Shown: positions 9,507 to 25,541, numbered from the stretch's first letter. The stretch is 64,000 nucleotides of DNA from an uncultured Chthonomonas sp. (GCA_903859705.1 CAIONQ010000063.1:55611-119610), one strand, 5' to 3'. Notes: generated from the letters alone by a model not told the origin. Program-made: numbers and translations.

Positions 9507-12500
9507 ATGTTTGGAGGAAGTACCAGGATGTATGAAACAAACCCATTTGCTCCCCCGCTTGAACTGAAGTTGATGGGAGATCTAACAATCCTCATTGATG
9601 GGCATGAGGTATCTGATCAGGCATCACCAGACGGCTCAAGAAAACTTGCTGTGCCTGCAAAGACCATGCTAATTCTGGCATTTATTGCACTCAGCGGCGG
9701 AGAGGCATCACGCGAGAAAATTAGAGGAGCACTGTATCCAACAAATGACTCTGAAACTCAAAAAAACAATCTCAAGCAGCGCCTAACAGAACTACGTAAG
9801 GCACTTGGAGAGAAGAAAGACCTGCTTCAAGAAGATAACTATCCAAAGCTCTCACTGATTATGGACCAGGTGCAAGTGGATGTCCTGCAGTTCGATCGGG
9901 ATATCGTTTCCAACAGCCCGGCAGTTATGCAGGCTGCAGTTGAACGATATGCGCCGCTAATGCCTGGCTCTGATTCGCTGCCGTGGGTACTAACTGAGCG
10001 AAAGAAGCGCCTGGATGCATTTCATAGGGCTGTGGCTATACTTCGCAACCACCTGTATGAGCAAGGCCATTGGAAACAATCTGTGGCTATCAGCGAACGT
10101 GCATATACCTTTGATCCCCTGAATGAGATTGTATTTCAGCGATTCTTAGAGGCACTTGGCAACGCGAAAGATGCAACGCGTGTAAACGATGAGTTTGATA
10201 AGTGGGAGAAAAAGTGTAGGAAAACATTAGGGCGTGCGCCTGAGAAGTACACTGTTGAAATTCGGACACGGATAAACAACAACACTTGGAAGCAACCCGG
10301 GCCAGGCGCAAGATCATTGCTTACTCCGGCACAGACGATACTTCCGCCAGAAAACATAATCAAACCTCCGTATCTAATTAGTAACCTGATTGGGCGAGAA
10401 GGCGACATCAGCAAACTTCTGGATAGGCTCACTACGAAAAAGTCCAGGTTGATTACTATTTCGGGAGCTGGAGGACTGGGCAAAACCAGCCTGGCGGCCG
10501 AATTGGCCACGCAACTATCGGATCAGTTTCAAGGTTGGATCAGTTATGTAGAGCTGAGCAGTGTTACAAATCCTATATCGATTGGTCCAGAAATACTGAA
10601 ATCAATGGGCTACGAGGCTACGCCCGGCAAAGCATGGACTACGGACCTGCGTTCCAACTTGCCATCAACACCTGTTCTGATAATTGTTGATAACTGCGAA
10701 CACCTGAGAAAAGGTGCAGCAGAGGCACTGTTGAATCTACTGCAGGCCCTGCCTCAGGTGCAGGTGCTAACAACAAGCCGTGGGGGGCTGGGTATAACTG
10801 GTGAGTACCTTCACCATATTGAGCCACTGGCGGTACCCACGGAAGGCGATCTGCCAACAAGCAAAACAGACGTTAACGATTGGATAGAGAGCCATCCTTC
10901 TGTTACCTTGTTTATTACCCGGGCTCAGGAACGGCGAGATTTCGAACCGCGGATTGCAGATGCAACTCCCGTCTCCCAGATTTGCCGTAAGCTGGAAGGA
11001 ATTCCCCTTGCTCTGGAGATGGCTGCGTCTCGCACTACGGAATTCTCACTCACTGAGCTTGCTATGCGATTGGATGGCCTGTTTGATACTCTGAAGTGGG
11101 ACAACCCGGTGGTGGCAGACAGGCAGTTAACCATGGAGGCTATGGTTAAGTGGAGCGTGGACCTGCTTAAGCCAGAGGAGGCGAGCCTGCTTCGGGCCAT
11201 GGCACGCTTCCGTGCCGGCTTTACAGAAGGGATGCTCGCCCGTGTTTGGAGTGATAACCCCAACGATAGCCGCGTGCAGTTGCTCATAGGTAACCTGATT
11301 AGGGTAGCATTGGTGAGATCTCCCGAAATAGATAACAATGAAGTCAAACAGTATCGAATGTTCGAGGTAATCAGGGAGTATGCGGCATACAGGTTGAACC
11401 AGGGGCCTACCATACCAGACTTGCCAGATCAATCGACAAGCTCTCTCGATGGCCGCTATGTTGAGGCGTACGCGACATACGTAACCGAGATATACAGAAC
11501 GATAAATAGCACAGAGGAAGCGATTGCATTCAGGGCAATTGACGTTGAGTTTGATAACGTACGCCATGCCATAGAGCTTGCATTGAGTGCTGCCACAATC
11601 AATGCCAAAAATATGCAAATGATTGATTGTCTGTGGAAATACTGTGGGCACCGGGGACTCGGAAGTGTGCAGCTCGATTGGTACACGCTAGCAAGATCGC
11701 TCCCGCTCGAGAGCGATATCGACACAGATCTGCTGCTGGACGTATTAATTCACACTGGCAATACCGCGATAGCAGTTGGAGACATGATAACCGCTGAACA
11801 ATGCTACTCACAGATGTTGGTTGAGGCCGAGCGTACACAAAACTATGACGATATTGGCGTTGCCAGAGGCAATTTGGCACTCGTTTATGAGCGCTCGGCG
11901 AATTACGAGCTGGCACTACAAGAGGCAATATCGGCGCTGGAGTACGTGAGGAAACATGAGGCCCTCAAGCCCGAGAAGTCTGCCACACCTCTTGAGAGCG
12001 AATACGTGCTGATTGGTAATATCGGCTCTTTACTCCGCGCTCTGGGCCGCTATACCGAGGCCATCGAGCGTTATCAGGAGAGCATTTTACTACAAGAACC
12101 TACCCCAACAGCAACGCGTTTTGCCCGTACTTTGTGTGAATGTGCCTACACTATGGCACTGGCACACCGATTTATCGAGGCAAATTCTAACCTTGCAAGG
12201 GCATTAAAATACCTGACCGATGTGGAAAGCCATCTTACCATTCCCATTGCCCTGAGCGTCGGCCTTGAGCTTGCAGCGGGATGCGAAGATCTTGAACCCC
12301 TCGCCTGTTTGCTGGGAGCGTTTGATGCAGCAATAGCTCGGTCACCCGCTACCATGGAGCCGCAACTACAGGCCTGCCGTGAACGTGCTCAGGATGTGTT
12401 GTTAACGCTCAATGCAGAGGCATACACGAACGCCTACAAAGCGGGCTTCGCAACCACGAACCACAATGCGCTGGAGTTGCTTAAGAGGGCAGTTCAACAG

Positions 12501-12518
12501 TGGAACAGCCAGCTCTAA
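9507..12518 (+). CDS. AfsR/SARP-like STAND regulator: winged-HTH + BTAD + NB-ARC P-loop NTPase + TPR
   Basis: The N-terminus has an OmpR/SARP-like DNA-binding pattern ('LMGDLTILIDGHEV...AKTMLILAFIALSGGEASREKIRGALYP'). P-loop 'ITISGAGGLGKTSLAAELA'. The C-terminus has TPR-like repeats. 1003 aa. Confidence 0.8.
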   Translation: MFGGSTRMYETNPFAPPLELKLMGDLTILIDGHEVSDQASPDGSRKLAVPAKTMLILAFIALSGGEASREKIRGALYPTNDSETQKNNLKQRLTELRKALGEKKDLLQEDNYPKLSLIMDQVQVDVLQFDRDIVSNSPAVMQAAVERYAPLMPGSDSLPWVLTERKKRLDAFHRAVAILRNHLYEQGHWKQSVAISERAYTFDPLNEIVFQRFLEALGNAKDATRVNDEFDKWEKKCRKTLGRAPEKYTVEIRTRINNNTWKQPGPGARSLLTPAQTILPPENIIKPPYLISNLIGREGDISKLLDRLTTKKSRLITISGAGGLGKTSLAAELATQLSDQFQGWISYVELSSVTNPISIGPEILKSMGYEATPGKAWTTDLRSNLPSTPVLIIVDNCEHLRKGAAEALLNLLQALPQVQVLTTSRGGLGITGEYLHHIEPLAVPTEGDLPTSKTDVNDWIESHPSVTLFITRAQERRDFEPRIADATPVSQICRKLEGIPLALEMAASRTTEFSLTELAMRLDGLFDTLKWDNPVVADRQLTMEAMVKWSVDLLKPEEASLLRAMARFRAGFTEGMLARVWSDNPNDSRVQLLIGNLIRVALVRSPEIDNNEVKQYRMFEVIREYAAYRLNQGPTIPDLPDQSTSSLDGRYVEAYATYVTEIYRTINSTEEAIAFRAIDVEFDNVRHAIELALSAATINAKNMQMIDCLWKYCGHRGLGSVQLDWYTLARSLPLESDIDTDLLLDVLIHTGNTAIAVGDMITAEQCYSQMLVEAERTQNYDDIGVARGNLALVYERSANYELALQEAISALEYVRKHEALKPEKSATPLESEYVLIGNIGSLLRALGRYTEAIERYQESILLQEPTPTATRFARTLCECAYTMALAHRFIEANSNLARALKYLTDVESHLTIPIALSVGLELAAGCEDLEPLACLLGAFDAAIARSPATMEPQLQACRERAQDVLLTLNAEAYTNAYKAGFATTNHNALELLKRAVQQWNSQL

Positions 12519-12585: not shown

Positions 12586-12752
12586 AGTGCTGTTATCTGA
12601 AAACAATTTTCGAAAAAGTTTATAACCACTGTAAGATCAAGGGCGTTCAGTGCGTTCCCTGCTCAGAACCGACGACATGGCAAGGGACTTAGGCCAATCG
12701 GTTCTTACCAAAACCCGGTGCAATGCACCGCAATCTCGCAGGAGCAGTAGGA

Positions 12753-13073
12753 ATGATCATCAACAAAACCACCATTGCAGCACGCCACTCTAGCCGCTTC
12801 GGCTTTGTTCGCAGCCTGGCACTCACCGCTCTCAGCATCGGAGCCCTGCTTGTGGGCGGAGCAAAGGCCGGCCTGTGCAATACAGAGTACTACCTCTTCG
12901 GTTCTGGCGGATCCCTGGTCGACATTACCGCTTACGTGGTTGAATATTCCGATGGCAGCCTCTGGGTGGTGGATTACAACGGCAACCCAACCTTTGAAAT
13001 CACCGTAGACGCAGCCGGCGATGTGCTGGATAGAACGGGCAACAAGCGCGGGGTTGTGAGTGAAGGGGTTTGA
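12753..13073 (+). CDS. Small secreted hypothetical protein (106 aa)
   Basis: A GGAGCAG ribosome-binding site precedes ATG 12753. Signal-peptide-like N-terminus 'MIINKTTIAARHSSRFGFVRSLALTALSIGALLVGGAKA'. No family recognised. Confidence 0.4.
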   Translation: MIINKTTIAARHSSRFGFVRSLALTALSIGALLVGGAKAGLCNTEYYLFGSGGSLVDITAYVVEYSDGSLWVVDYNGNPTFEITVDAAGDVLDRTGNKRGVVSEGV

Positions 13074-13104: not shown

Positions 13105-13150
13105 GCCTCCAGCCCCGAATGCGATGCATTTGGGGCTGGAAGTGTGTTTG
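13105..13150. terminator. Hairpin between convergent genes; putative bidirectional terminator
   Basis: Stem ctccagcccc / ggggctggaag, followed by tgtgtttgg. Confidence 0.5.
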
Positions 13151-13161
13151 GACTGGTATTG

Positions 13162-14487
13162 CTATTTTTCCAGAGTATCGAGTGCCGCAGATCCATTGTG
13201 CCAGCTGTGGCTGAACATAATGCCGAGAAAGTGGCCCCGAAGTTCATCGATACCATAGGTTAACTTTGCCTCGCTGTAATTTGGAAATCTGCGTGCCACG
13301 AAAAGGTCATATGAGTCTTTGTAACCATTATTCATCAGGCTTGAGGCTTTGTAGTCCGCACCTACATGCCATATCCACCGGCTGAGGTAGGTGCGTTCGC
13401 AACCTACAATCTCACGCACTTTTTGATCTTGAAAATACATGCTTACAGACGGAACGATTGCTGTTGAATAACCAAGCTCGTTCGACTTTTCGTGGGTGTA
13501 CATGGCAGATACAGACCCAAAGATAACCCCAGCTCCTGCTTGAACAAGTGGTGAAAGAACCGATGAGCCAACGTTATACCTCCGAATTGCACCTGGCGCG
13601 TTGATTGCGCCTGCGCTTAGGTTGTATTGAGTTGAATTGGCAACTGCCTCGGCCCATTTACGTGCGTTCTCAATGCAAAAGTGTGCAACATATGCCTCGG
13701 CAATGCTAATTGTGTCACCTTCTTGGTAACTATAAGATCTCAGGAAGTCAATTGCGATGGCTGCTGCAGACAAAGCTCGCGCATACGGCGATTGAGCAAA
13801 ACCAGGCATGATGCTCGCGCTAAATATATATGCTCCATGGCCGGTTGCAACCGCGCCAGCTGTTAGGTCCTCACCGTAGCGTTTGTCGCTGAAATTCGCA
13901 AGTGCAACCGCCGAAACCCTGCTGTCATGTACAACAGAAGTCAAATAGAGTGTAGTAGAGTTAGTCCCAGGTTTAGAAGTGATGGATTGCCGCAGCACTT
14001 TCACATCCGGAGTAATGTCTCCTACCCAGTGCTTGAACGGTCCTGTGGCTTCGGTAAATTTTTCCGGCGTGCTAACAACAGCCAATGAAACTGCTATCGC
14101 GTTTAGGTACTTATCTTCGAGGCCTGGAGCCGGTTTCAAGTATTCAAGGCGCTTGATCATTTCTCCCAACACAGGCGGCAATGGACTATTGAGCCCTGCG
14201 ATTTTTCCTTTCAAACCATAGCGTCCATTCTTGCTGTCGTTAATCAGGGAAGCCAAGTTTTTATAGTTATCCAAGAAGTTTACTGGCGTATCCTGCACAT
14301 CTGGTATTAAACTCGCCATAGAACTGCGCTTCAACACATCTGATATAGACATAGAGCTGATTGCCGTAGTGTATTGAACCGGATTTGCAGGCGGAGCCTC
14401 ATTTGCGGCGCTACGTATCGATAGCGATGACGCTAAAGCCAGAAGGCCCGATAATAATGTTTTGTGCGTATGCATCATGCGGAACAT
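13162..14487 (-). CDS. Secreted hypothetical protein (441 aa), probable distal gene of the CHAT-STAND cassette
   Basis: N-terminal signal peptide 'MFRMMHTHKTLLSGLLALASSLSIRSAA'. A GGAGG ribosome-binding site lies 7 nt upstream. It starts only 67 bp after the CHAT-STAND stop codon, with no convincing terminator in between. No family recognised. Confidence 0.6.
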   Translation of the reverse strand: MFRMMHTHKTLLSGLLALASSLSIRSAANEAPPANPVQYTTAISSMSISDVLKRSSMASLIPDVQDTPVNFLDNYKNLASLINDSKNGRYGLKGKIAGLNSPLPPVLGEMIKRLEYLKPAPGLEDKYLNAIAVSLAVVSTPEKFTEATGPFKHWVGDITPDVKVLRQSITSKPGTNSTTLYLTSVVHDSRVSAVALANFSDKRYGEDLTAGAVATGHGAYIFSASIMPGFAQSPYARALSAAAIAIDFLRSYSYQEGDTISIAEAYVAHFCIENARKWAEAVANSTQYNLSAGAINAPGAIRRYNVGSSVLSPLVQAGAGVIFGSVSAMYTHEKSNELGYSTAIVPSVSMYFQDQKVREIVGCERTYLSRWIWHVGADYKASSLMNNGYKDSYDLFVARRFPNYSEAKLTYGIDELRGHFLGIMFSHSWHNGSAALDTLEK

Positions 14488-14554
14488 GCAATTCCTCCAG
14501 GTGAGTTGTTAGAACGAGGTCAGAGTATCTCGAAATAGTTGCAGTGGGCCGAAA

Positions 14555-17551
14555 CTATTTGAGATGAATTAGCTCTTCGATTTTTCCCCTCACCTTCTTT
14601 GGTCTATCATCGGATGGGGGCAGATACTTTAAGTAGATGTCTTGACTGGTGCTATAGTGTTGCAAAGCCGATTCCGTATTGCCAAGTAAACGTTGGTTCT
14701 CGGCGATATAATAGTGCGATGCTGCACAATGTAAGTGCCGTTCGCCAATACTGCCACACCGCATCTGGAGCGCTGTGTTGTGGCAAACGAGTGCGGCATT
14801 CAGATTACCCGTTGCTGTAAGGCAACGGCCTTTATTGTCAAGCATAGATGCGATACGCTGGAGACGTGGATTCTTCTTTTGCTCCTCAACGTCAAGCGCA
14901 AGGTTGAGACACTTAAGTGCGTCCTCGTACATGGCGAGATCCTCGTATGTGGTACCCATATTGTTGTGAATTGAAGCTCTCGTTCGTAGCACGCTACCTT
15001 CCTGGCCTAAGAGCACCGATAGACCTTTCTGGTACCAGCCGATTGCACATTCCTTGGAAGCAACGGCACCACACGCATTAAAGAATCGGCCAAGCTCATG
15101 GCTGTCGGCAGGCACAGACCTTTCAGCCATGCGAAGCGCCTCATGGAAGTAATTTTGTACCTGCTCGTCGCTGTCGTTCTTTTCGCGAATGTTGTCTCCT
15201 TTTTGAACCAACAGATCTGCTCGCCGCAAAGAGGAGGTTTCGCCCATGCAATCGAGCAGTTGCTCTGCCCCATCCAGGTCTCTCAACGCTGAATCATAAT
15301 CTGCCATGGATTGCCGGACTTCTGCTGAAGCTATGAGCATCTCGACAGCTTCATCCCATAACTTGTGCTTGCGGCATTGGTTGGTAATCTCGGCAGCATG
15401 TGGCAGCAGCGAGAAGCAGTATTGCCAGCGGGCCGCCTCAATCCCCTGGCGTAACGCTTCTGTTATCGCTTTGGCTGCGCGGGCAGTAGCTGCTTTCAGC
15501 GTTTTGCTTGAGGCGCTGTGGCGCAGATATTGGCGTACTAATTCGTGTAATGCCACGTAGCCCTGGTCCGTTTTTTTGAGCAGAGCCCCGTCTCTAAGAT
15601 AAGCGATTTGGTCTAGCGCATTATCGGTAGATTTCTCGCCGCTGGATTGCTGCAGAAGATCAACGGGAATGGGCTCCTCTGCAAAACACCCCGTTGCCAG
15701 AAGCATGCGTCTTGTTTTATGGCCCAGGCTCTTGATTGCAATGTCGATACTATCAAATAGGGATCCTGAGTGGCCTGTAACACTTGTAAAACGGGTGCGG
15801 GCACGTGTAAGTGTTTTCACCGGCTCTGCGCGCAATATCTGGAGATACTGGCTGAATGGGATATCCAGCCGTGCAACATGGTGGGCTGCCAGTGTAAGTG
15901 CAAGCGGCAAATTGCCGATGATTTTCGTAATCTCCAGCACTGCTGCACTATCTTGCGCTGTAATTGCCGAGCGTCTTGACTGTAATAGGGCAGATGCGCC
16001 CTCTTCGTCCAGCGCATCCAGGCATATTGGCCTAAACCCTGATGGCAGATGAGCCGATCTGCATGTTGCCAGCACGGTGCAGATATTTGCAACAGGCAGC
16101 CATGCCTCCGGTGTTGAATCGGTTACGTTATCGTATATGAACAACGTTTTCTGTGTCCCTCGCTGGAGGATTCTCAGGGCCTCATGCTCGCGATTTGCCA
16201 GTGATTCCGGTATGTGTAACAAGTCTGCAATCTCGGAAAAGCTGCTCTTGATGCTGTCCTCATTTGCTGCTCGAACCCAGAAAGTGCCACCTGGATATTT
16301 GTCTCTCGCGGCGTGGGCATACTGGCTGGCCAACATGGTCTTCCCAATTCCAGAGATGCCAAATATCACTGCACGGGTAGCACGTCCAGCAGTGGTCTCA
16401 AAGTGTAGTGCCTGTATATCAGCTTCTCTACCGTTGAATTCGCCAGAGTGCGGAAAAGGCAAAACCTGCATTGCATCACCTCTTGCCATCCACGTTTGGG
16501 AGGAGCTGTGTGATGATGCAAATAGAACCGGGGCTACCCAATCGGCACCATGGCCCTCGATGGCCGTTCTTGCGCCAGAAACGGCCTGCTCAAGTGTGTC
16601 CTGGCAGGTAAGCGCGCCGTAAAGAGCCCGGGAAAACTGCCGCACGCTTACTTCTCGAAGCGGGCTCTGGTGGCAAAGAATTGATGCAGATATTTGCCGC
16701 GATAACTCTGCCCCTAATCCAATGGTGTCGCAAGCGTTCAATATCACAAGCTTAAGCCTGGGAAATTGGAGCATGGGCTGCAGATTGCCAGCGTGCAAGC
16801 GGGCGTAGCCAGTATCGGATTTCAGAATGATAGCAGCGGGTGCGAGGGATGTTGCAGGTTCCGCATGCCCGATAAAGTGGAGCACATCAGGCTGGAATTC
16901 GGCGAGGGCAGCCTCTAACATGGCAGGCGTAGCATTCGCAAGAACGCGGGTTTCTATGCGTCTGCACTCTGGCGAGGCATGAAGAATCGCCTCAATGTCG
17001 CGCGCTTCTTTTCGAGCCTGCGTAAGGTGGGCATATTGGCCAGATTGAGGGTCTGCCCAGACGATCAGAACCACCAGCCGATCTGTGAGATCCTGGTTAT
17101 ACAGGGCGAGTTCGGAAGGCTGCTCCGGCGGGGAGGTTAGGCGTAAAAAATGGATGCAAGGACTTAGCGCCAGGAAGTTTGGCCGGTCCAGCAAATGCGA
17201 AAACGTATCAACATGGGCAATCTCCCACGGTATTGTGTTAAGTGCATCTGGTAACCGCAAACCCAATCTTACCTTCGATGCTTTGTTCCGCATAACCGTT
17301 GCATCTACTGCGCTGGTAACAAGGTTGGGCAGCAATGCGGCGGCAACAGCGGTACCCAGATCCCGCATTGTTTCAGGTGGAATGCCAGTTTCTTTGAAGG
17401 TACTGAAGGCGTCTGCGGCCATTTGCGCCAGTTGACTTGCAGATCCGCACGAATCACGAAACGTTCTTGCACCATGTGCAGCTTCACACCATATCTGGTC
17501 TCCATCATCATCAAGTGTTAGAACAAATTGGATTTCAGTACACTCGTTCAC
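14555..17551 (-). CDS. STAND NTPase with N-terminal CHAT (caspase-like) domain, central NB-ARC/NACHT-like P-loop ATPase and C-terminal TPR array
   Basis: CHAT His/Cys dyad 'LHFIGHAEP' ... 'LVILNACDT'. Walker A 'VIFGISGIGKTMLASQYA'. C-terminal TPR repeats ('NNMGTTYEDLAMYEDALKCLNLAL', 'LDNKGRCLTATGNLNAALVCHNTALQM'). 998 aa. Confidence 0.85.
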   Translation of the reverse strand: MNECTEIQFVLTLDDDGDQIWCEAAHGARTFRDSCGSASQLAQMAADAFSTFKETGIPPETMRDLGTAVAAALLPNLVTSAVDATVMRNKASKVRLGLRLPDALNTIPWEIAHVDTFSHLLDRPNFLALSPCIHFLRLTSPPEQPSELALYNQDLTDRLVVLIVWADPQSGQYAHLTQARKEARDIEAILHASPECRRIETRVLANATPAMLEAALAEFQPDVLHFIGHAEPATSLAPAAIILKSDTGYARLHAGNLQPMLQFPRLKLVILNACDTIGLGAELSRQISASILCHQSPLREVSVRQFSRALYGALTCQDTLEQAVSGARTAIEGHGADWVAPVLFASSHSSSQTWMARGDAMQVLPFPHSGEFNGREADIQALHFETTAGRATRAVIFGISGIGKTMLASQYAHAARDKYPGGTFWVRAANEDSIKSSFSEIADLLHIPESLANREHEALRILQRGTQKTLFIYDNVTDSTPEAWLPVANICTVLATCRSAHLPSGFRPICLDALDEEGASALLQSRRSAITAQDSAAVLEITKIIGNLPLALTLAAHHVARLDIPFSQYLQILRAEPVKTLTRARTRFTSVTGHSGSLFDSIDIAIKSLGHKTRRMLLATGCFAEEPIPVDLLQQSSGEKSTDNALDQIAYLRDGALLKKTDQGYVALHELVRQYLRHSASSKTLKAATARAAKAITEALRQGIEAARWQYCFSLLPHAAEITNQCRKHKLWDEAVEMLIASAEVRQSMADYDSALRDLDGAEQLLDCMGETSSLRRADLLVQKGDNIREKNDSDEQVQNYFHEALRMAERSVPADSHELGRFFNACGAVASKECAIGWYQKGLSVLLGQEGSVLRTRASIHNNMGTTYEDLAMYEDALKCLNLALDVEEQKKNPRLQRIASMLDNKGRCLTATGNLNAALVCHNTALQMRCGSIGERHLHCAASHYYIAENQRLLGNTESALQHYSTSQDIYLKYLPPSDDRPKKVRGKIEELIHLK

Positions 17552-17597
17552 TTGAATACCTATACAGCTGATGTTGCCACTGCCCGTTGATTTGTAA

Positions 17598-18725
17598 CTA
17601 AAGTGGATCGTGAATTATCTGTGCTCGGAATACCCATGCCGGATCGATCAAACTTGCCGATCCAGGCAACTCAAATGGAGTAGCTTCGATGGCAGTTTCC
17701 ATTATGCGCAGCCGCGCAATGGTTTGTACCGAATGTGGGATGGCATCAAGCTCAAGCTCCAAGAGCTCACCCTCAAGCGCCATGCATGCACCCGGCGTCA
17801 TAGTTGCAATCCATGTACCGCTATCCATGCTTATCAGAGTTACGGGTTGTGGCTGCATTCCACTGCCGTTGTTTATAGACGCCAGTACTGTTCTTGAACT
17901 TGGTGGGCCCTCCGTGGTTGCAAAAGCGCTCTCTGCAGACCGGATTTCAATGTAAGAAGGTGGAAACACACCCTCTGTAACTCCAAAATAGCCACCGACC
18001 TCAGGCACTACCCACTGCCACACACCACCATCCGGCGAGGTGAAAGCAACTGGCACCCGGCGCCCCACAGGGCCTATGCAAAGCACAGTATCCGGGAGAG
18101 CCAATTCGTGTTCTGGCGTGGTTGCAGTCACAAATAAGGTGCCAGTTTCGTCTGTTTCACATCGAGAGAGCCGGAGGCTAACGTCTGAACCGTCGTTGCC
18201 AGGAACTGTGAATTCAAACCTTTCGGCAGTGGCGCCACGTGCAACAGCGGGGGCAGCCGTTTGCGCTGCTAGTCGCGCCTGCTCGCCCAGCAGTCTTACA
18301 ACCGAACCAAAGGCACTGATCGCCGCACGAAGCCAGCCGGCGGATCGGTTTGGATATGCATCGGAGTTTGTTTGAACAGGGATAGTTAGAGCTTCAAGTC
18401 GCGACCCTACTATGTGTAGCCATGCCTCCGCTACCTCCTGCTGTTGAGGGGTTGTTGCAACGGATCGAACTTCGGCCAGAGGGACCTTCTGCATGGCGCA
18501 CAGTGTTTTGCGCACATCGCGCAGTTCGGCCCTTGTAGATGCACTCTCCACCAGCGCAATGGTAACGCCGTCGTACTCTTCCGGGGTGGCGGTTCCCGCC
18601 ATATAAGCCACCAGCATGGCCACTGTTGGTAACACCACGGGCTCGGGAGCCGGAGGAGTTTTCAATAGCTGGAAAACAGGATCTATTTGTTCAAATTCGC
18701 TCACTGGATGTGGATCAGGCATCAA
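17598..18725 (-). CDS. Hypothetical protein (375 aa), translationally coupled to the upstream sigma-like gene; candidate anti-sigma/adaptor
   Basis: Its start overlaps the upstream gene's stop by 11 nt. It lies 46 bp upstream of the CHAT-STAND gene. No recognisable domain, no signal peptide and no transmembrane segment. Confidence 0.55.
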   Translation of the reverse strand: MMPDPHPVSEFEQIDPVFQLLKTPPAPEPVVLPTVAMLVAYMAGTATPEEYDGVTIALVESASTRAELRDVRKTLCAMQKVPLAEVRSVATTPQQQEVAEAWLHIVGSRLEALTIPVQTNSDAYPNRSAGWLRAAISAFGSVVRLLGEQARLAAQTAAPAVARGATAERFEFTVPGNDGSDVSLRLSRCETDETGTLFVTATTPEHELALPDTVLCIGPVGRRVPVAFTSPDGGVWQWVVPEVGGYFGVTEGVFPPSYIEIRSAESAFATTEGPPSSRTVLASINNGSGMQPQPVTLISMDSGTWIATMTPGACMALEGELLELELDAIPHSVQTIARLRIMETAIEATPFELPGSASLIDPAWVFRAQIIHDPL

Positions 18726-19953
18726 ACCCCTCCTTCCCGTTGTACAGCTCCTGCCACACTTTTTTTACCTGCTTCAAGAGGCGATACTGGCTTATCCACG
18801 CCTCGGCGGTTGTATGAGTGAGGGCGAAACCGAACTGTTGGCCCGGTTGAGATATCCGTTCCAGAATATCGTTAACTGGCAGATCAACCTGGTAGCGATA
18901 CTGAAAAGCCATGCGCTGCCATAGAGGCGGGCTGTTGATCTGGGCGGCTCGGACGATGTCTTCTCGCTGTGCCTCCAACTGCTTCCTTGTCTCGATGGCC
19001 ATCCGGGCAAACGGCAGCCGGACAGAGAGCTCAGTCAGTTTTTCCTGAATTGCCAATCTGGTGATCTCTGGCCATCGGCCGGTAACTCGCTCCATCGCAA
19101 CCTCACGGCTAAGTCCGAAGTAGTACCTGGCAGTCGCAGTCACCAGCTCTTCCCATCGGGGTTCTGCATCTGGTACTGAAGAGCTGTTCCAGTGGTCTGT
19201 AACGGATGCGTCCGTAAGCGCCGGGTTACTCAGCAGCTCTTTCAGCAAGTTCAGAGGGTCCAGCATGAGCTTCCGGTAAACGTACATCAGTACCGTTGCG
19301 GGATCGTACAAAATGCCCAAAATCAGCTCCGCATTCACCGCATGGTGGTATTGCTTTAGTGCGCCGCGGAACGTGTAGACGAGGTCTTCCATTTCATCAC
19401 CATCGTCAAAAAACATACTGGCAATGGCTTGCCTGATATTTATCTCTTCTTCAATGCTGTTGGCATCTACCTTTAGCCACCGCACATCTGCACACCACAT
19501 TATCTGTTGGTACAAATCTCGGTTGATGGCGTCAATTTCAATGTTGATGTCATCAGGATCATCTTCCTCGAGGCCTTCTTCCGTATGAAGCTGTGAGAGT
19601 TGAATTGGGCGTCGCTTGCGAAAATGGTCAATGCAAAGGTTGTCTGCAGTTTTGCGCAACAACGCAAATACGCCGTTTCCTGACCTCACGTCGGTAGTAT
19701 GTCGGCTTTCCCAAAGGCGACTGCAGGCCATATTCACAATTTCTTCGCGATCATCATATTGGATTGAGCAGTAGCTTCTTATTAGGTAGTGCTTGAGTCT
19801 CGGTGTCAGTTCTTCAACAAGCCTATCAAAGGCTCGTTTAGCATTATTTGAATCGGCCGATGTCACTGCTGTCCATAAACGCAGTATTTCCACTCTGAAT
19901 CTCCCACAAAAATCCCCCTGCAACGAGGGAAGAACAGACAGCGGCCACCGCAC
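18715..19953 (-). CDS. Sigma-70 family-like protein (412 aa) with a region-2-like N-terminus, a long insert and a degenerate region-4-like segment
   Basis: 'AFDRLVEELTPRLKHYLIRSYCSIQYDDREEIVNMACSRLWESRH...GVFALLRKTADNLCIDHFRKRRP' matches the ECF region-2 pattern. 'ARYYFGLSREVAMERVTGRWPEITRLAIQEKL' is region-4/HTH-like. This is an atypical architecture. Confidence 0.55.
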   Translation of the reverse strand: MRWPLSVLPSLQGDFCGRFRVEILRLWTAVTSADSNNAKRAFDRLVEELTPRLKHYLIRSYCSIQYDDREEIVNMACSRLWESRHTTDVRSGNGVFALLRKTADNLCIDHFRKRRPIQLSQLHTEEGLEEDDPDDINIEIDAINRDLYQQIMWCADVRWLKVDANSIEEEINIRQAIASMFFDDGDEMEDLVYTFRGALKQYHHAVNAELILGILYDPATVLMYVYRKLMLDPLNLLKELLSNPALTDASVTDHWNSSSVPDAEPRWEELVTATARYYFGLSREVAMERVTGRWPEITRLAIQEKLTELSVRLPFARMAIETRKQLEAQREDIVRAAQINSPPLWQRMAFQYRYQVDLPVNDILERISQPGQQFGFALTHTTAEAWISQYRLLKQVKKVWQELYNGKEGFDA

Positions 19954-20085
19954 TCAAATTAACTGTGTGGTGCCCGTGGTAAAACAATAGGCCCGTGCGA
20001 CTTCATAGGTGCAAACAGGCAGTCTTTGCAACAATACCGAACTATTGGACCGGTTTGCTAAGGAATCCTCTTTAATTAAACCCCA

Positions 20086-21558
20086 CTATGTGAGATTGCT
20101 TGCCTGCTCAGGATTATGAGCTCCTGGTGCAGTGGAATCGTAGTTTCGTAGTGCCGGCCATTTAATAGCCGCAAAGGCTACAACCAACAAACAACCGATG
20201 CCGCCGCTGACCACGGAGAACACCGGGTTCGTGTATTTGGATACTACACCAGATTCAATGCCGCCAATTTCATTGGAGCTGTTTACAAAAATCGCATTGA
20301 TTGCGTTAACTCTGCCACGCATTTCATTGGGAGTCAGTGTTTGGATCAGCGTTTGCCTCACCACCACACTTATCATATCCAACGCACCAATAAGTGCCAG
20401 AGCTACCAACGCTACAGGTAGCGAGTGGGAGTAGCCGAACACTATGGTGGCAACCCCAAATCCGGCCACTGCAATTAGCATAGCCTGGCCCGGTCTCCTT
20501 ACAGGCGGCATATGGGTCATTAGCAAAGCTGTAAGCAAGGCACCAAAAGAACCTGCACTGCGCATTAGCCCAAGCGATCCTGCCCCGGTATGGAGGATGT
20601 CGGATGCATACACTGGCAACAGGGAAACCGCACCACCAAACAATACTGCCAGCAAATCAAGAGTTATGGTAGCCAGAATGATGTTTGTGCCGCGCACATA
20701 GTGTATGCCGGCGGCAAGCGCTGCCCAGGTTACGGGCTCACGCTTAGTCGAACGCTCTTCATTTAGCTGTAACTTTGATAATAGCCAGGCGCAACTTAGC
20801 CCGATACACCCTGCCAGCACATACACCACAAACGGAAAGGCCGGGCGTCCTACAGCAACTACCTTGTGCAGGGGGCCCTTTGCGCCTGTTGCAACTATCG
20901 GGTGGATTGCCACTGGAAGCTTGCTGCCAAGTTTGGAAGTAAACTCCAGCAGATAACCACCCACCGCCGCACCTGTCATCACGGCAATTCGGCGGATACT
21001 GGTGTCCCATGAGATCGCGCTTGCCAGGTTCTCTTTTGGCACAATCTGCGGCATGATGGAGGCACGCGCCGGGTTGCCAAACGCACGTGCTGTCATTGCG
21101 CAAAACAGGCACAGATAAAACAGTGGCACCGGCCCATGAAATGCAGATAAAAGCGCCAGCAGCAAGGTGAATACCGAAAACGTTGTTTGTGCGGTAACAC
21201 TCACCAGCTTGCGCGGCATCCGGTCTGCAAGGTGCCCGGCGGGGAGAGCAAAGAGTAGGATAGGGGCCGCCTGGGATAAGCCCACATACGCCACCACTAG
21301 ATTATCCTGGGTCCGGGCATACAATTCCCAACTTACGGCAACACTCTGGATAGCATCTGCAAATCCAGATAGATTCCTGCCTGCAGTAAACAGCCGATAT
21401 TGCGGCAAACGCAGGGGGGTGTAAGGATCGGTAGCTTTGCCCTGTACCGGAGGTGTAGTTGTTGCTTCCACGCTGAGTAGTGTACCCTTATGATGCCGTA
21501 AGGGAGGCGGCAATCTATTGGTGCTACCGGCCGGGCCAGGCATATCCGTTTTCAACAC
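20086..21558 (-). CDS. MFS transporter
   Basis: 12–14 predicted transmembrane helices with MFS-like loop motifs ('GHLADRMPRKL'). 490 aa. The start is ambiguous (GTG 21558 or ATG 21543). Confidence 0.8.
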   Translation of the reverse strand: MLKTDMPGPAGSTNRLPPPLRHHKGTLLSVEATTTPPVQGKATDPYTPLRLPQYRLFTAGRNLSGFADAIQSVAVSWELYARTQDNLVVAYVGLSQAAPILLFALPAGHLADRMPRKLVSVTAQTTFSVFTLLLALLSAFHGPVPLFYLCLFCAMTARAFGNPARASIMPQIVPKENLASAISWDTSIRRIAVMTGAAVGGYLLEFTSKLGSKLPVAIHPIVATGAKGPLHKVVAVGRPAFPFVVYVLAGCIGLSCAWLLSKLQLNEERSTKREPVTWAALAAGIHYVRGTNIILATITLDLLAVLFGGAVSLLPVYASDILHTGAGSLGLMRSAGSFGALLTALLMTHMPPVRRPGQAMLIAVAGFGVATIVFGYSHSLPVALVALALIGALDMISVVVRQTLIQTLTPNEMRGRVNAINAIFVNSSNEIGGIESGVVSKYTNPVFSVVSGGIGCLLVVAFAAIKWPALRNYDSTAPGAHNPEQASNLT

Positions 21559-22945: not shown

Positions 22946-25495
22946 ATGCATCAGGCAACACATAGAATGCGGGCCAGGCTCTTAACTATTGCAATTGCAA
23001 TTCCAACAACGGTAATTGTGGTTGCAGCACACGCTGGCCCTCCAGTGGTCGGCCGCCCTTCTTATCCTGGCCCCAGCCCGGACAAGGTGCGATTTTTCAA
23101 CACAGAAGTACTGCCAATTCTGAAGGAATCGTGCTTCAATTGCCACGGTAGCGGAGCGCAGTTAAGCGGCGGCCTGAGTATGACCACGCACGATTCTCTG
23201 TTTAAGGGCGGCGTATCGGGCTCTGCACTCAGGGCAGATAAGCCGGAAGATAGCCTGCTGGTAAAAGCTGTTAACTATCAGGGCCGAGAAATGCCGCCCT
23301 CTGGCAAGCTGCCACCCGCAAAGATAGCCGTTCTCACCAAATGGGTTGCTATGGGTGCACCCATGCCGCTCGGTTCTGTTGCTGCACCGGGGGCTGCCAA
23401 GCCCAGCGGAATTCCCGTAACGCCGGAAACAAAAAACTTCTGGAGTTTCAAACTTCCAAAACGCTCCCCGCTTCCCACGGTAAAGAACAAAGCGTGGAGC
23501 GCAAACCCAATCGATAGGTTCATCCTTGCGGGCCTCGAGAAAAATGCTCTGCTTCCTGCGCCTCGTGCCTCTAAAATTGCCCTGCTTCGGCGCGCAACCT
23601 ATGATTTAACAGGGCTGCCGCCAACGCCTAAAGAGGTCGCAGATTTTCTTGCAGACACATCCCCAAAGGCATACGAAAAGGTTGTAGATCGCCTGCTGGC
23701 ATCTCCCCATTATGGAGAGCGTTGGGCACGCCATTGGCTGGATCTGGTAAGGTACGCCGAGAGCAACAGCTTTGAGCGAGATAACCCCAAGCCTTTTGCA
23801 TGGCGATACCGGGACTATGTAATTGGCGCGCTGAACAACGATAAGCCGTATAACCAGTTTATCACGGAGCAGCTTGCCGGTGATGAGCTGCCGAAGAGAA
23901 CAGATGAAGCGCTAATTGCCACCGGTTACTATCGCCTTGGCGCGTGGGATGATGAGCCATCAGATCATGAACAGGCCCGCTATGATGAACTCGACGACAT
24001 TGTGGCGACCACCGGCCAGGTGTTCCTGGGGCTTACCGTAAACTGCTCTCGCTGCCACGATCATAAGATTGATCCAATACCACAGAAGGATTACTACCGG
24101 CTCCTCTCATTCTTTCAGGGAACAAAGCGGTACGGTGGTACTGGCGGGTCTGTAGAACAGAACTCTCTTCGTGCAATTGGTCCAGAAGAAGAAAAACAGC
24201 GATTTGCGCGGGAAGACAGCGAGTATCACCGCAAACTTTCTGGCGTACTTACTCGCCTCAAAGCCATTGAGGGCGCAATCATCCCCGATCTTTCCTCTGT
24301 CGAAAAGGAAGAATGGGGCAATCCTCAGGCTCGGCTTGCAGCGCTAAAAAAGCGGGTGCCGGCAAAAGTGGCAGAAGAAACCTACCGCGAAGCCATAGCA
24401 CTGGACAATGAACGTAGAGATCTGGAAAAGTCCCCACCAAAAGGGCTTGAGTTGGCGCTGTGCGTTACAGAGGGTGGCAAAACAGTACCCGCAACACATG
24501 TTATGCTGCGTGGCAACCCGCATGTGCCGGGAGACGAAGTGCAGCCCGGCTTCTTGAGCGTGCTCAGTCCGCCAGAGCCGGTTATACCAGAGTTGCCTTC
24601 AGACGTGGCGTCTTCTGGCCGTCGCTCAGCCCTGGCCGCCTGGATTGCTTCCGCCAATAACCCGCTCACCGCGCGAGTATTTGTCAACAGAATTTGGCAG
24701 CACCATTTCGGCAGAGGAATTGTTCGCACTACCAGCAATTTCGGTTTTCAGGGCTCAGCACCAACCCATCCGGAACTGCTGGATTGGCTCTCAACCGAAG
24801 TTGTAAAAAGCGGCTGGAAAATCAAAACTCTCCACAGGTTAATAATGCTCTCCAACACTTACTGCATGAGCTCTAAAGGCAATGCTGTTGGCCTGAAGAA
24901 GGATCCGGAGAACAACCTGTTCTGGCGTTTTGATATGCGTAGGTTGGATGCAGAAGAAATAAGAGACTCCATGCTGGCGGTTAACGGAACTCTAAATCTT
25001 CAGATGGGTGGCCCACCTGTTTATCCCAAAATTCCGGCAGAGGTGCTGGCCGGCGAATCGCGCCCGGGCGCAAACTGGGAAGATTCAACTCCGGAACAGA
25101 TGGCGCGGCGCTCTGTGTACATCCACATAAAGCGATCGCTAACAGTACCCATCCTGGCATCCTTCGATGTGGCCGATACGGATTTCACCTGCCCTGTTCG
25201 ATTTGCCACCACACAGCCAACTCAGGCTCTGGGGTTAATAAACAGCACGTTCGCAAACGAGGAAGCAGCACTCTTCGCAGAGTACGCCCGCAAACAGGCG
25301 CCGGAGAGCTCGGCGAAGCAGATATCCCTTATACTGGCCCGCGTAACGCAGCGCACTCCGACTGCGGCCGAGATAGCCAGAGGGCAGAAGTTCATCAAAA
25401 CCGTGATGACAAGAGATCATGTTTCTGAGCAGGATGCGCTGAAATACTACTGCGTAGTTGCGCTTAACCTGAACGAGTTTATCTATCTGGATTGA
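22946..25495 (+). CDS. PSCyt/PSD protein (planctomycete cytochrome c domain + DUF1549 + DUF1553)
   Basis: Signal peptide. Heme-binding motif 'CFNCHG' and a second 'CSRCHDHK'. The 849-aa architecture is typical of the PVC-specific family. Confidence 0.88.
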   Translation: MHQATHRMRARLLTIAIAIPTTVIVVAAHAGPPVVGRPSYPGPSPDKVRFFNTEVLPILKESCFNCHGSGAQLSGGLSMTTHDSLFKGGVSGSALRADKPEDSLLVKAVNYQGREMPPSGKLPPAKIAVLTKWVAMGAPMPLGSVAAPGAAKPSGIPVTPETKNFWSFKLPKRSPLPTVKNKAWSANPIDRFILAGLEKNALLPAPRASKIALLRRATYDLTGLPPTPKEVADFLADTSPKAYEKVVDRLLASPHYGERWARHWLDLVRYAESNSFERDNPKPFAWRYRDYVIGALNNDKPYNQFITEQLAGDELPKRTDEALIATGYYRLGAWDDEPSDHEQARYDELDDIVATTGQVFLGLTVNCSRCHDHKIDPIPQKDYYRLLSFFQGTKRYGGTGGSVEQNSLRAIGPEEEKQRFAREDSEYHRKLSGVLTRLKAIEGAIIPDLSSVEKEEWGNPQARLAALKKRVPAKVAEETYREAIALDNERRDLEKSPPKGLELALCVTEGGKTVPATHVMLRGNPHVPGDEVQPGFLSVLSPPEPVIPELPSDVASSGRRSALAAWIASANNPLTARVFVNRIWQHHFGRGIVRTTSNFGFQGSAPTHPELLDWLSTEVVKSGWKIKTLHRLIMLSNTYCMSSKGNAVGLKKDPENNLFWRFDMRRLDAEEIRDSMLAVNGTLNLQMGGPPVYPKIPAEVLAGESRPGANWEDSTPEQMARRSVYIHIKRSLTVPILASFDVADTDFTCPVRFATTQPTQALGLINSTFANEEAALFAEYARKQAPESSAKQISLILARVTQRTPTAAEIARGQKFIKTVMTRDHVSEQDALKYYCVVALNLNEFIYLD

Positions 25496-25541
25496 TGTGC
25501 CGGGGTGATGTGTTCAGAACAACGAACACGAGGAGAGAGAT

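Follow-up and report, generated by a model that had tools for sequence, protein, structure and literature searches.

What connects a sigma-factor-like protein, a caspase-like protease and two proteins of no known family that are encoded side by side? The window, the whole 64,000-nucleotide stretch of DNA analyzed here, carries four co-oriented, closely spaced ORFs on the minus strand (Table 1), and their coordinates and spacing agree with the original prediction, in which genes 1 and 2 were read as ORFs of 412 aa (18715-19953) and 375 aa (17598-18725). The start of the sigma-like gene is most likely GTG 19893, not 19953, judging from its use in all gene calls and homologues. The overlap of genes 1 and 2 is 11 nt with TTG 18725 as the start of gene 2 and 8 nt with ATG 18722, the gene callers' choice, and a strong ribosome-binding site, GGAAGGAGGGG, lies ahead of gene 2 within the 3' end of gene 1. 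A gap of 46 nt separates gene 2 from gene 3, and the predicted GGAGG site in the spacer between genes 3 and 4 was found 7 nt ahead of the ATG of the 441-aa gene. No strong terminator was detected between the four genes, terminator-like matches there having only short 5-6-bp stems; together with the co-orientation, overlap and short gaps, this supports the single operon proposed originally. A hairpin in the convergent intergenic gap after the last gene is likely the bidirectional terminator that closes it.

Table 1. Features of the locus; nucleotide positions are counted from the first letter of the window, residues from the start of each protein.
Feature	Nucleotides	Residues	Strand	Remarks
Gene 1, sigma-like protein, 392 aa	18715-19893		minus	Maximal ORF reaches 19953
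Sigma2 domain of gene 1	19609-19821	25-95	minus	
Disordered linker of gene 1		95-115	minus	
Sigma4-like HTH of gene 1	19309-19521	about 125-195	minus	
Conserved helical C-terminal extension of gene 1		200-392	minus	Near-invariant motif W325-x-R327-x-x-F330-Q-Y332
Gene 2, 374-aa soluble protein, putative anti-sigma factor/protease substrate	17598-18722		minus	Overlaps gene 1
Anti-sigma-domain-like helices of gene 2	18468-18626	33-85	minus	Without zinc ligands
Invariant Arg162 of gene 2	18237-18239	162	minus	In P-A-V-A-R-G linker motif
C-terminal domain of gene 2			minus	Fold unassigned
Gene 3, CHAT-NB-ARC-TPR STAND protein, 998 aa	14555-17551		minus	Pfam domain matches
CHAT domain of gene 3	16559-17326	76-331	minus	His229, 16865-16867; Cys274, 16730-16732
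NB-ARC of gene 3	15890-16438	about 372-554	minus	Walker A Lys404, Walker B Asp474
TPR array of gene 3	14558-15454	about 700-998	minus	
Gene 3/gene 4 spacer, 67 nt	14488-14554		minus	GGAGG ribosome-binding site; identical in 92%-identical relative L009
Gene 4, 441 aa, lineage-specific accessory/output candidate	13162-14487		minus	Signal-peptide-like N-terminus; outside conserved core
Hairpin, 15-bp stem	13108-13140			Candidate bidirectional terminator in convergent gap
Operon upstream region and edge of hypervariable island	19894-20100		minus	L011 nucleotide similarity ends at about 20101

Which of these genes belong together? The original prediction described a four-gene cassette and called for a comparison of gene neighbourhoods. 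We find that the conserved unit is three genes: the sigma-like gene, the overlapping anti-sigma-like gene 2 and the CHAT-STAND gene. Of 11 independent informative loci, 10 carry a sigma-like gene, a homologous gene 2 and a CHAT-NTPase gene one after another (the window, L011, L004/5, L013, L015, L017, L020/21, L022/23, L025/26 and L027/28); these loci come from independent samples, include an Armatimonadetes MAG and are related at 20-40% identity. With the exception of L018/19, where the third gene is dynamin-like and not CHAT, the order is the same throughout; the gene 2 homologue keeps its position in all 11 loci, and genes 1 and 2 overlap or abut in every one. The proteins have also diverged together (Mantel test; sigma-like versus CHAT, r = 0.84, p = 2e-4; gene 2 versus CHAT, r = 0.60, p = 0.001), and this tight co-divergence, taken with the adjacency, suggests physical co-adaptation of the pair and the protease. 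Gene 4 lies outside this unit. Its homologues were found only in the close relatives L009 (84% identical) and L011 (38%), unrelated genes occupy its position in other lineages, and its dN/dS of 0.89 indicates near-neutral evolution. The "secreted orphan" of the original prediction is an orphan by Pfam, NCBIfam and PADLOC, none of which matched the 441-aa protein; it may also be secreted, a reading that comes from a signal-peptide-like N-terminal segment judged by eye and a hydropathy scan in which no transmembrane segment was seen.

The three-gene core evolves rapidly. In the syntenic relative L011 the flanking genes are 73-95% identical to those of the window, as against 31-38% for the cassette genes, and the nucleotide similarity breaks off sharply at about 20101, upstream of the operon. 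Likewise, dN/dS is 0.18-0.26 for the core genes versus 0.011 for a flanking MFS gene. The cassette is a hypervariable, fast-evolving island, and this variability suggests a function in biological conflict, whether anti-phage or anti-competitor, over one in housekeeping stress signalling. Counted against an immune role are the surroundings, which are housekeeping genes and no recognized defence island, and the PADLOC search, which identified no known defence system at the locus; a search of viral contigs and plasmids turned up no relatives. The same surroundings and the same PADLOC result would suit a coincidental adjacency of unrelated genes, a reading effectively refuted by a three-gene order that persists at such low identity, by the gene overlaps and by the joint divergence of the proteins.

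The domains predicted for the 998-aa protein, a CHAT protease with an intact His/Cys dyad, an NB-ARC-type ATPase and TPRs, are borne out by Pfam scores above the respective cutoffs (CHAT, 58.3 bits; NB-ARC, 25.5 bits; TPR_12, 54 bits). The dyad residues His229 and Cys274 (five relatives aligned), the Walker A residue Lys404 and the Walker B residue Asp474 are invariant. The protein thus has the CHAT fold and His-Cys dyad of the caspase-like clan CD proteases, and its closest solved CHAT relative, 8tl0, is itself a CHAT protein. Its NTPase belongs with the NB-ARC, AfsR or FxSxx_TPR types, the Pfam NACHT model scoring 17.2 bits, below its cutoff of 26.7. An effector, a STAND NTPase with intact Walker motifs and a repeat sensor follow one another in the chain, and to this extent the predicted match with Avs and bNACHT systems stands; it does not extend to any described Avs or bNACHT family, since PADLOC models gave only two weak matches, SAVED_CHAT (E 0.005, 13.7 bits) and mad8 (E 0.014), both over short stretches.

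Is gene 1 a sigma factor? The protein, predicted to be sigma-70-like with a region 2, is a real sigma2-containing protein: Pfam Sigma70_r2 scores 28.4 bits against a cutoff of 24, regions 2.1-2.4 of the Sigma-70/ECF (group IV) type are present, and every one of its structural neighbours is a bona fide sigma factor. The core-binding and -10-recognition motifs of sigma2 are kept, with near-invariant Trp61 and Arg64 and the family consensus DxEDxxQ...W. The protein belongs to a coherent unnamed family of 189 clusters and about 380 aa, in which sigma2 is followed by an HTH resembling sigma4 and by a conserved C-terminal extension of ~190 aa, the last being the best-conserved part. The assignment of the HTH to sigma4 is weak. 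The alignment to a canonical ECF sigma runs on into sigma4 (aa 125-178 of the window protein) at a weak hhalign probability of 48.5%; Pfam r4_2 matches 5 of 60 family members and r4 2 of 60, in P0133 r4_2 sits elsewhere (aa 255-282), and the window's own protein has no Pfam r4 match. The best PDB sequence match, SigG1 (7qh5, 1.4e-13), is confined to sigma2. At 392 aa the protein is larger than a compact two-domain ECF sigma (about 170-250 aa), but ECF sigmas with extensions are known, so its length is no bar to sigma function. SigG1, for example, similarly has an ECF-type sigma2 followed by a long extra C-terminal region; in the window protein, in contrast, the extension is all-helical, with HTH-like units and a conserved motif of its own.

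These features bear on another possibility, in which gene 1 encodes no transcription factor but a PhyR-like sigma mimic that serves as decoy or adaptor, its state watched by the STAND protein in a guard/decoy arrangement for phage proteins that target host sigma factors. The atypical architecture, in which a long extension is conserved best, would fit such a role, as would the weak sigma4 support, the failure to find a common promoter motif upstream of the sigma-like genes of 13 family members, and the match of the PhyR_sigma2 model to one family member. A mimic, however, accounts poorly for the retained sigma2 motifs and for structural neighbours that are all sigma factors, and we consider this explanation to have only a small chance of being correct. 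We favour a sigma factor that would bind RNA polymerase.

Gene 2 lies where a class-I anti-sigma factor would be expected, directly downstream of the sigma gene and predicted to be co-transcribed with it. The family of the 375-aa protein was originally given as unknown, and so it stays by Pfam (no match above threshold), NCBIfam and PADLOC. A hydropathy scan found no transmembrane segment, indicating a soluble protein, and no sensor domain was recognized. The top PDB match of its N-terminal profile is the anti-sigma domain (ASD) of RslA (3hug_B), in register on the ASD motif, at an E of 0.37 that is short of database-wide significance. In direct comparison with RslA the hhalign probability is 70.7% and the pairwise E 3.8e-5, and in a shuffle control none of 20000 shuffles reached the real score. 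The zf-HC2 model matched one of nine family members, weakly (E 0.85), and RslA itself, used as a query, retrieves no other ASD from the PDB. At the positions aligned with the zinc ligands H-x3-C-x2-C of the ZAS subgroup, none of 11 members has His or Cys. The N-terminus of gene 2 resembles a zinc-less class-I anti-sigma-like domain, through which the protein would bind its sigma partner. With the exception of Gly43, Arg64 and Arg162, no residue is invariant among the 11 members. Arg162 sits in an indel-rich linker with small residues on either side, and a bacterial caspase-like protease has been described that strictly needs Arg at P1 and prefers small nonpolar neighbours (10.1101/2024.10.24.620036); on the strength of this precedent and of an invariant Arg in such a linker, we nominate Arg162 as the putative cleavage site.

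We propose, with about even confidence, that the three proteins act in the cytoplasm as one signalling module, in which a dedicated sigma factor comes under proteolytic control. In the resting state the sigma-like protein would be kept inactive by the N-terminal anti-sigma-like helices of the 374-aa protein. Second, a ligand sensed by the TPR array of the STAND protein would promote nucleotide exchange or binding and oligomerization, which would bring the N-terminal CHAT domains together and activate them. Third, CHAT would cut the anti-sigma-like protein, with Arg162 of the PAxA-R-G linker as the most likely P1 residue. The freed sigma-like protein, with its sigma2 domain, sigma4-like HTH and C-terminal extension, would then redirect RNA polymerase, and the variable gene or genes downstream of the protease, here that of the 441-aa protein, are candidate outputs. 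Of the two functions raised by the original prediction, the protease-gated sigma/anti-sigma switch is thus the one we favour, and the Avs-like module survives as a description of architecture.

Could the pair be purely regulatory? ECF sigma operons often hold genes under their own control, and all genes at the locus are predicted to be co-transcribed; an autoregulated sigma/anti-sigma pair might therefore control transcription of the CHAT-STAND gene without any proteolytic link, leaving the protease to act on other targets. The control of a CBASS-CRISPR island by DdvS/DdvA (PMC11506125) and the existence of related CHAT-STAND proteins that have no such pair (L006-8) agree with this arrangement. 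On the other hand, a soluble partner with no transmembrane or recognizable sensor domain offers no evident route to inactivation, the CHAT-NTPase follows the pair almost invariably and diverges with it, and an autoregulatory promoter motif was not found; we regard this explanation as unlikely. Distinctly unlikely, in our judgment, is a module for abortive infection in which a promiscuous Arg-specific CHAT-STAND protease brings about cell death or arrest in the manner of PCaspase or the type IV Thoeris caspase, with gene 2 as a protease inhibitor or chaperone and the sigma-like protein as a substrate or side arm. Such promiscuous caspase-like proteases occur in Thoeris IV (10.1101/2024.10.24.620036), in the type III-B cascade the targets of PCaspase include a sigma factor and the inhibitor PCi (10.1101/2023.06.23.546230), and a hypervariable island with an effector, a STAND NTPase and TPRs arranged as in Avs is in keeping with them. 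A specialized sigma-like family and a dedicated partner that are strictly conserved nevertheless argue for a specific output, as does the anti-sigma-like motif of gene 2, and no Avs system was matched by PADLOC.

The original prediction did not recognize the coupling of such a protease to a sigma factor from described systems; precedents do exist. In the type III-E Craspase module (Csx29 TPR-CHAT, Csx30, Csx31 and CASP-sigma/RpoE) a CHAT protease likewise stands beside an ECF-like sigma, a partner of no assigned family that binds and inhibits it, and a further unknown protein. There, Csx29 cuts Csx30, the inhibitor of CASP-sigma, and sensor-triggered proteolysis is proposed to release the sigma factor (PMC10028731), the same logic that we propose here. 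In the window, by contrast, protease and sensor form one chain, the sensor being a STAND NTPase of the NB-ARC type, and the order is CHAT-NTPase-TPR and not TPR-CHAT; a search of the PDB with the gene-2 profile gave no Csx30 match. The CASP-sigma NCBIfam model gives the sigma-like protein 17.7 bits against a cutoff of 100. Array search, Rfam and a large-ORF survey revealed no CRISPR array, crRNA or Cas7-11/gRAMP in the window, where no ORF other than those of two STANDs reaches about 1000 aa.

Other known systems share parts of this organization. Caspase-like N-terminal effectors have been described on bacterial STANDs (PMC13581612), and the CHAT-STAND protein is built as Avs and bNACHT proteins are, with the effector (in this case a protease) at the N-terminus, the NTPase in the middle and a TPR sensor at the C-terminus; obligate sigma-like and anti-sigma-like partners, however, are absent from a survey of ten protease-associated effector families (10.1101/2025.11.14.688446). 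Caspase/ECF-sigma neighbourhoods have been seen computationally in the EACC2-caspase systems (Kaur et al. 2021, PMC8195603), predicted conflict systems with an ECF sigma as transcriptional output. In those systems EACC2 is fused to a caspase, the C-terminal domains vary and a DUF1822 TPR protein is encoded separately, whereas the window has a CHAT-NB-ARC-TPR fusion, a distinct ~380-aa sigma-like family and an anti-sigma-like partner, and gave no DUF1822 match in Pfam. DdvA of Myxococcus is a TPR-CHAT anti-sigma factor, so that CHAT, TPR, anti-sigma domain and the ECF sigma DdvS lie in one pathway, and CHAT proteolysis is proposed to release the sigma factor (PMC11506125). DdvA is a single membrane protein with a periplasmic TPR-CHAT region and a zinc-binding ASD, and release requires RseP; the components in the window are separate, predicted to be cytoplasmic, zinc-less and equipped with an NTPase. 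Finally, the protease/anti-sigma/sigma trio CalpL-CalpT-CalpS of type III CRISPR systems (10.1101/2024.05.08.593097; 10.1101/2023.06.23.546230) is also tripartite, with an ECF-like sigma in CalpS, and sensor-driven oligomerization switches on anti-sigma cleavage. The protease of CalpL is of the Lon type and is turned on by cyclic oligoadenylate via SAVED, in contrast to a CHAT protease on a STAND NTPase, and no sequence relation of gene 2 to CalpT was detected. By analogy, we suggest, as a proposition that could fall either way, that the module is a CRISPR-independent counterpart of Craspase-Csx30-CASP-sigma and CalpL-CalpT-CalpS; if so, it would answer a sensed signal with new transcription, through cleavage of a partner protein and without CRISPR.

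How is the cassette organised, and which of its genes belong together? The four minus-strand reading frames of the original prediction (13162-19953) are all present exactly as listed and encode a sigma-like protein (gene 1), a putative anti-sigma protein of 374/375 aa (gene 2), a 998-aa CHAT-NB-ARC-TPR STAND protein (gene 3) and a 441-aa protein (gene 4). The predicted spacing is borne out, with an 11-nt overlap followed by gaps of 46 and 67 nt, and a GGAGG lies 5' of gene 4; the overlap is 8 nt with the gene callers' choice of ATG 18722 as the start of gene 2, and GGAAGGAGGGG, inside gene 1, sits 5' of gene 2. The unit indeed contains no clear terminator, the intergenic terminator-like matches all being weak with stems of only 5-6 bp, and a hairpin with a 15-bp stem at 13108-13140, in the convergent gap, closes it. 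For the sigma-like gene the start is almost certainly GTG 19893, which gives 392 aa and agrees with every gene call and homologue. Pfam recognises the domains that had been read by eye: the first protein carries Sigma70_r2, and CHAT, NB-ARC and TPR all match the 998-aa protein. The 375-aa and 441-aa proteins match no entry of Pfam, NCBIfam or PADLOC and no PDB sequence, single-sequence PDB searches included.

Gene neighbourhoods separate a three-gene core from the fourth gene. Contexts were recovered for sigma-like members across the full score range, giving a census of 11 sampled loci for a family of 189 clusters (a first metagenome scan yielded no loci, a genome scan one and a viral scan none). 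In ten of the 11 loci (see table) the sigma-like gene is followed by an overlapping or abutting homologue of the 375-aa protein and then by a CHAT-NTPase. The exception is the locus L018/19, where the third gene opens with a dynamin-family GTPase domain (Dynamin_N, 1.8e-14), and therefore the pair may also couple to other NTPases. Relatives of the CHAT-STAND protein also occur without the sigma-like pair (L006-8). The four-gene set originally proposed is conserved in part: genes 1-3 recur in the ten loci, and homologues of the 441-aa protein are found only in two close relatives, L009 (84% identity) and L011 (38%), the post-protease genes of other lineages being unrelated to it and mostly also to one another. 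Across nine loci, pairwise identities correlate between the sigma-like and CHAT proteins (r = 0.84, Mantel p = 2e-4), between the second-gene and CHAT proteins (r = 0.60, p = 0.001) and between the sigma-like and second-gene proteins (r = 0.48, p = 0.005), which argues that the core genes are inherited and diverge as one module. Because the neighbourhood is conserved, coincidental adjacency is effectively excluded.

Two further arrangements were seen among these contigs. L014:1-9185 and L015:5547-11837 share 6291 nt at 100% identity and part within the second gene, past which L014 is without a CHAT-STAND gene; either a chimeric assembly or natural structural variation accounts for the difference. 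In a clade of HTH_77-carrying CHAT-NTPases, the genes downstream of the protease encode a small protein (116-147 aa) and a TP_methylase-family member, with the sigma-like pair present or absent, and L004 carries two CHAT-NTPase paralogues in tandem.

Loci carrying the core genes and coordinates of other features (positions without a locus name are those of the window)
Feature	Locus or position	Strand	Description
Core-gene locus	L001/L002		metagenome contig, the window's own source
Core-gene locus	L011		syntenic relative
Core-gene locus	L004/L005/L010		Armatimonadetes MAG
Core-gene loci	L013, L015, L017		from metagenome scan
Core-gene loci	L020/21, L022/23, L025/26, L027/28		from further look-ups
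Dynamin-type third gene	L018:4210-4737; L019:3241-3777		both contigs end before the gene does
HTH_77 clade	L004:12981-17679; L006:13203-14340; L022:14894-16053
Second STAND gene	9507-12518	+	1003 aa; weak BTAD, NB-ARC/AAA_22, TPR; SARP/AfsR-type-like; convergent to cassette
Small neighbour of second STAND gene	12723-13073	+	116 aa, one hydrophobic segment
PSCyt1/PSCyt2/PSD1 and DUF1501 protein pair	22946-26993		849 aa and 483 aa

What kind of protein is the sigma-like factor? A word-indexed search found, beyond itself, only one 80% relative; the 189 clusters came from an exhaustive HMMER search across 1.84 billion representatives, and 71 reach E <= 1e-10. With few exceptions they span 345-415 aa and align over their full length, and they form one coherent family, for which Pfam and NCBIfam hold no dedicated model. 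The family profile matches ECF sigmas in the PDB at up to 1.4e-13, covering sigma2 only, and AF2 on a 2-sequence alignment was likewise confident for sigma2 only. An hhalign comparison with the canonical ECF sigma of L022 extends from sigma2 to the sigma4 HTH (window protein aa 21-178) at only 48.5% probability, and Pfam r4_2 and HTH models match few family members, in the member P0133 at aa 255-282. In our reading, sigma2 is followed by a sub-threshold sigma4-like HTH and by a helical extension of ~190 aa that is conserved; the extension holds further HTH-like units and the best-conserved motif of the family, W325-x-R327-x-x-F330-Q-Y332. A search for promoter motifs, bipartite or of the classical AAC-N16-17-CGT form, found no excess over shuffled controls. 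An alignment of 60 sequences proved too divergent to be scanned for patterns. A BFVD search returned phage sigma matches only, none significant; that the protein is a sigma-mimic decoy we regard as improbable.

The second gene may encode the partner of this sigma-like factor. A word-indexed search with the 375-aa protein gave essentially self matches only, and the protein has no TM segment. All 11 members examined share the N-terminal motif LVxYxxGxLxxxExxxVxxxLxxxxxxRxxL, which is suggestive of, and does not establish, a class-I anti-sigma helix pattern with the zinc ligands replaced. A 3-sequence N-terminal profile found no anti-sigma domain (ASD); among 177,635 PDB sequences, the top match of a 10-sequence profile was 3hug_B (E 0.37), the chain of the M. 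tuberculosis anti-sigma-L factor RslA in its complex with SigL. That alignment is in register on AAYVLGALSAADRREFEAHLAGCPECRG, hhalign against the 3hug_B segment gives 70.7% probability (pairwise E 3.8e-5), and the real score of 14.5 bits exceeds all those from 20,000 shuffled versions of the RslA segment with matched composition (maximum 12.4). One member touches Pfam zf-HC2 (E 0.85). Weak scores are to be expected for the ASD fold, since RslA used as bait in the PDB retrieved no other ASD. The gene-2 profile has no similarity to Csx30 or CalpT, the sigma-factor inhibitors of the CRISPR-linked Craspase and CalpL systems. An apparent kinship with polyubiquitin (gene-2 family profile A8, 6.7e-14) was rejected as an artefact, the sum of repeated 11-13-bit matches, none significant singly, in which an 'A-R-G-G' linker and beta-strand resemble the ubiquitin 'LRGG|MQIF' junction.

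Invariance in the gene-2 family is limited to three residues: G43 and R64 within the ASD-like region, and R162 in a 'P-A-phi-A-R-G/S' motif, part of an indel-rich linker before the C-terminal domain. For cleavage, a bacterial caspase-like protease, that of type IV Thoeris, needs a P1 Arg flanked by small nonpolar residues (10.1101/2024.10.24.620036). Because an invariant linker Arg fits this requirement, we infer that R162 is a candidate site of cleavage by CHAT. In the CHAT-STAND protein, the H229/C274 dyad, Walker A K404, Walker B D474 and a GxPLAL motif are invariant among relatives, and aa 370-969 (NTPase-TPR) score 139.8 bits (cutoff 300) against the NCBIfam model 'FxSxx-COOH system tetratricopeptide repeat protein', which indicates a STAND module akin to that family.

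We propose that a ligand bound by the TPR array would cause the STAND NTPase, as sensor, to oligomerise; that oligomerisation would bring the CHAT domains close and activate them; and that active CHAT would cut the anti-sigma-like protein at R162, freeing the sigma-like factor. We give this mechanism about even chances. That CHAT is instead a promiscuous abortive-infection protease served by accessory proteins is quite unlikely.

The cassette lies in conserved surroundings. In the syntenic relative L011, flanking proteins are 95% (DUF1501), 82% (ROK), 80% (PSCyt/PSD1) and 73% (MFS) identical in amino acids, and all four cassette proteins only 31-38%; nucleotide similarity runs from window position 27876 down to 20101 and then ends. 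These identities define a hypervariable island in conserved synteny. The 1003-aa STAND protein (~36%) and the 116-aa protein (58%) have positional homologues in L011, and their low identities place both genes in the same island. Against closer relatives, dN/dS is 0.011 for MFS, 0.18 for the sigma-like gene, 0.24 for gene 2 and 0.23 for CHAT-STAND, where it is similar across the three domains. The 441-aa gene reaches 0.89 against its 84%-identical relative, in which the 67-nt spacer upstream is identical; by these values the protein's evolution is near-neutral or driven by diversifying selection, with its regulatory region conserved. In one contig pair (18418-20830 vs L003), dS is ~4.5 (saturated) for MFS and moderate for the sigma-like gene (0.69) and gene 2 (1.0); recombination or transfer may have given cassette and flank separate histories, or the difference may be saturation noise.

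The neighbours of the cassette are ordinary chromosomal genes (MoxR, RsgA, UvrD, HtrA, sugar metabolism). Planctomycetota and Verrucomicrobiota genomes characteristically carry the PSCyt/DUF1501 pair, which would suggest a source in that group. These surroundings hold no tRNA, integrase, flanking repeats, CRISPR array or Rfam element, and nothing suggesting a mobile element; no cassette relatives were found on viral contigs or on the plasmids searched. Judged from its divergence, the locus is a hypervariable island of a pattern typical of conflict systems; it is not a recognised defence island. That the sigma/anti-sigma pair is purely regulatory we hold to be unlikely. CHAT-mediated release of the sigma-like factor could, more tentatively, represent CRISPR-independent innate immunity, in which an NLR-like STAND protein spares the cell and its fused caspase-like protease frees a dedicated, hitherto unclassified sigma to launch a transcriptional defence programme. 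The low identity of the cassette within conserved synteny makes it a candidate arms-race locus in poorly studied, mostly unidentified bacteria that only metagenomes have revealed, with an Armatimonadetes MAG among the relatives.

If the innate-immunity reading is correct, the cassette would be the first STAND-protease-sigma axis, joining the Avs/NLR world to the 'protease frees sigma' principle of Craspase and CalpL. Protease-released sigma factors have recently become known as an output of CRISPR type III immunity, after RNA-guided or cyclic-nucleotide sensing only; here the same output logic would be wired to an NLR-type STAND receptor, giving a compact system of three genes with which to reconstitute ligand sensing, proteolysis and transcription. 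Two unannotated families are defined, the sigma-like proteins with their conserved C-terminal extension and an anti-sigma-like partner with a candidate Arg site, and R162, H229, C274 and K404 offer directly testable residues.

How does the module compare with known systems? The original prediction likened it to antiviral Avs and bNACHT proteins; in membership tests it falls outside the described families of both, and PADLOC finds no system. Nor is a sigma/anti-sigma partner among the ten protease-associated effector families of a recent survey (10.1101/2025.11.14.688446). In type III-E CRISPR, the TPR-CHAT protein Csx29 cleaves Csx30, an inhibitor bound to the ECF-like CASP-sigma (PMC10028731); unlike Craspase, our module is without Cas7-11, an array or a Csx30 homologue, and the CASP-sigma model scores 17.7 bits vs a cutoff of 100. 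Similarly, the anti-sigma CalpT, bound to CalpS, is in some type III systems the substrate of the SAVED-Lon protease CalpL (10.1101/2024.05.08.593097; 10.1101/2023.06.23.546230). In DdvA of Myxococcus an anti-sigma domain and a TPR-CHAT module form one fusion protein (PMC11506125), and Kaur et al. described caspase systems with ECF sigma genes as neighbours (PMC8195603). The anatomy of the module matches the documented logic of these systems.
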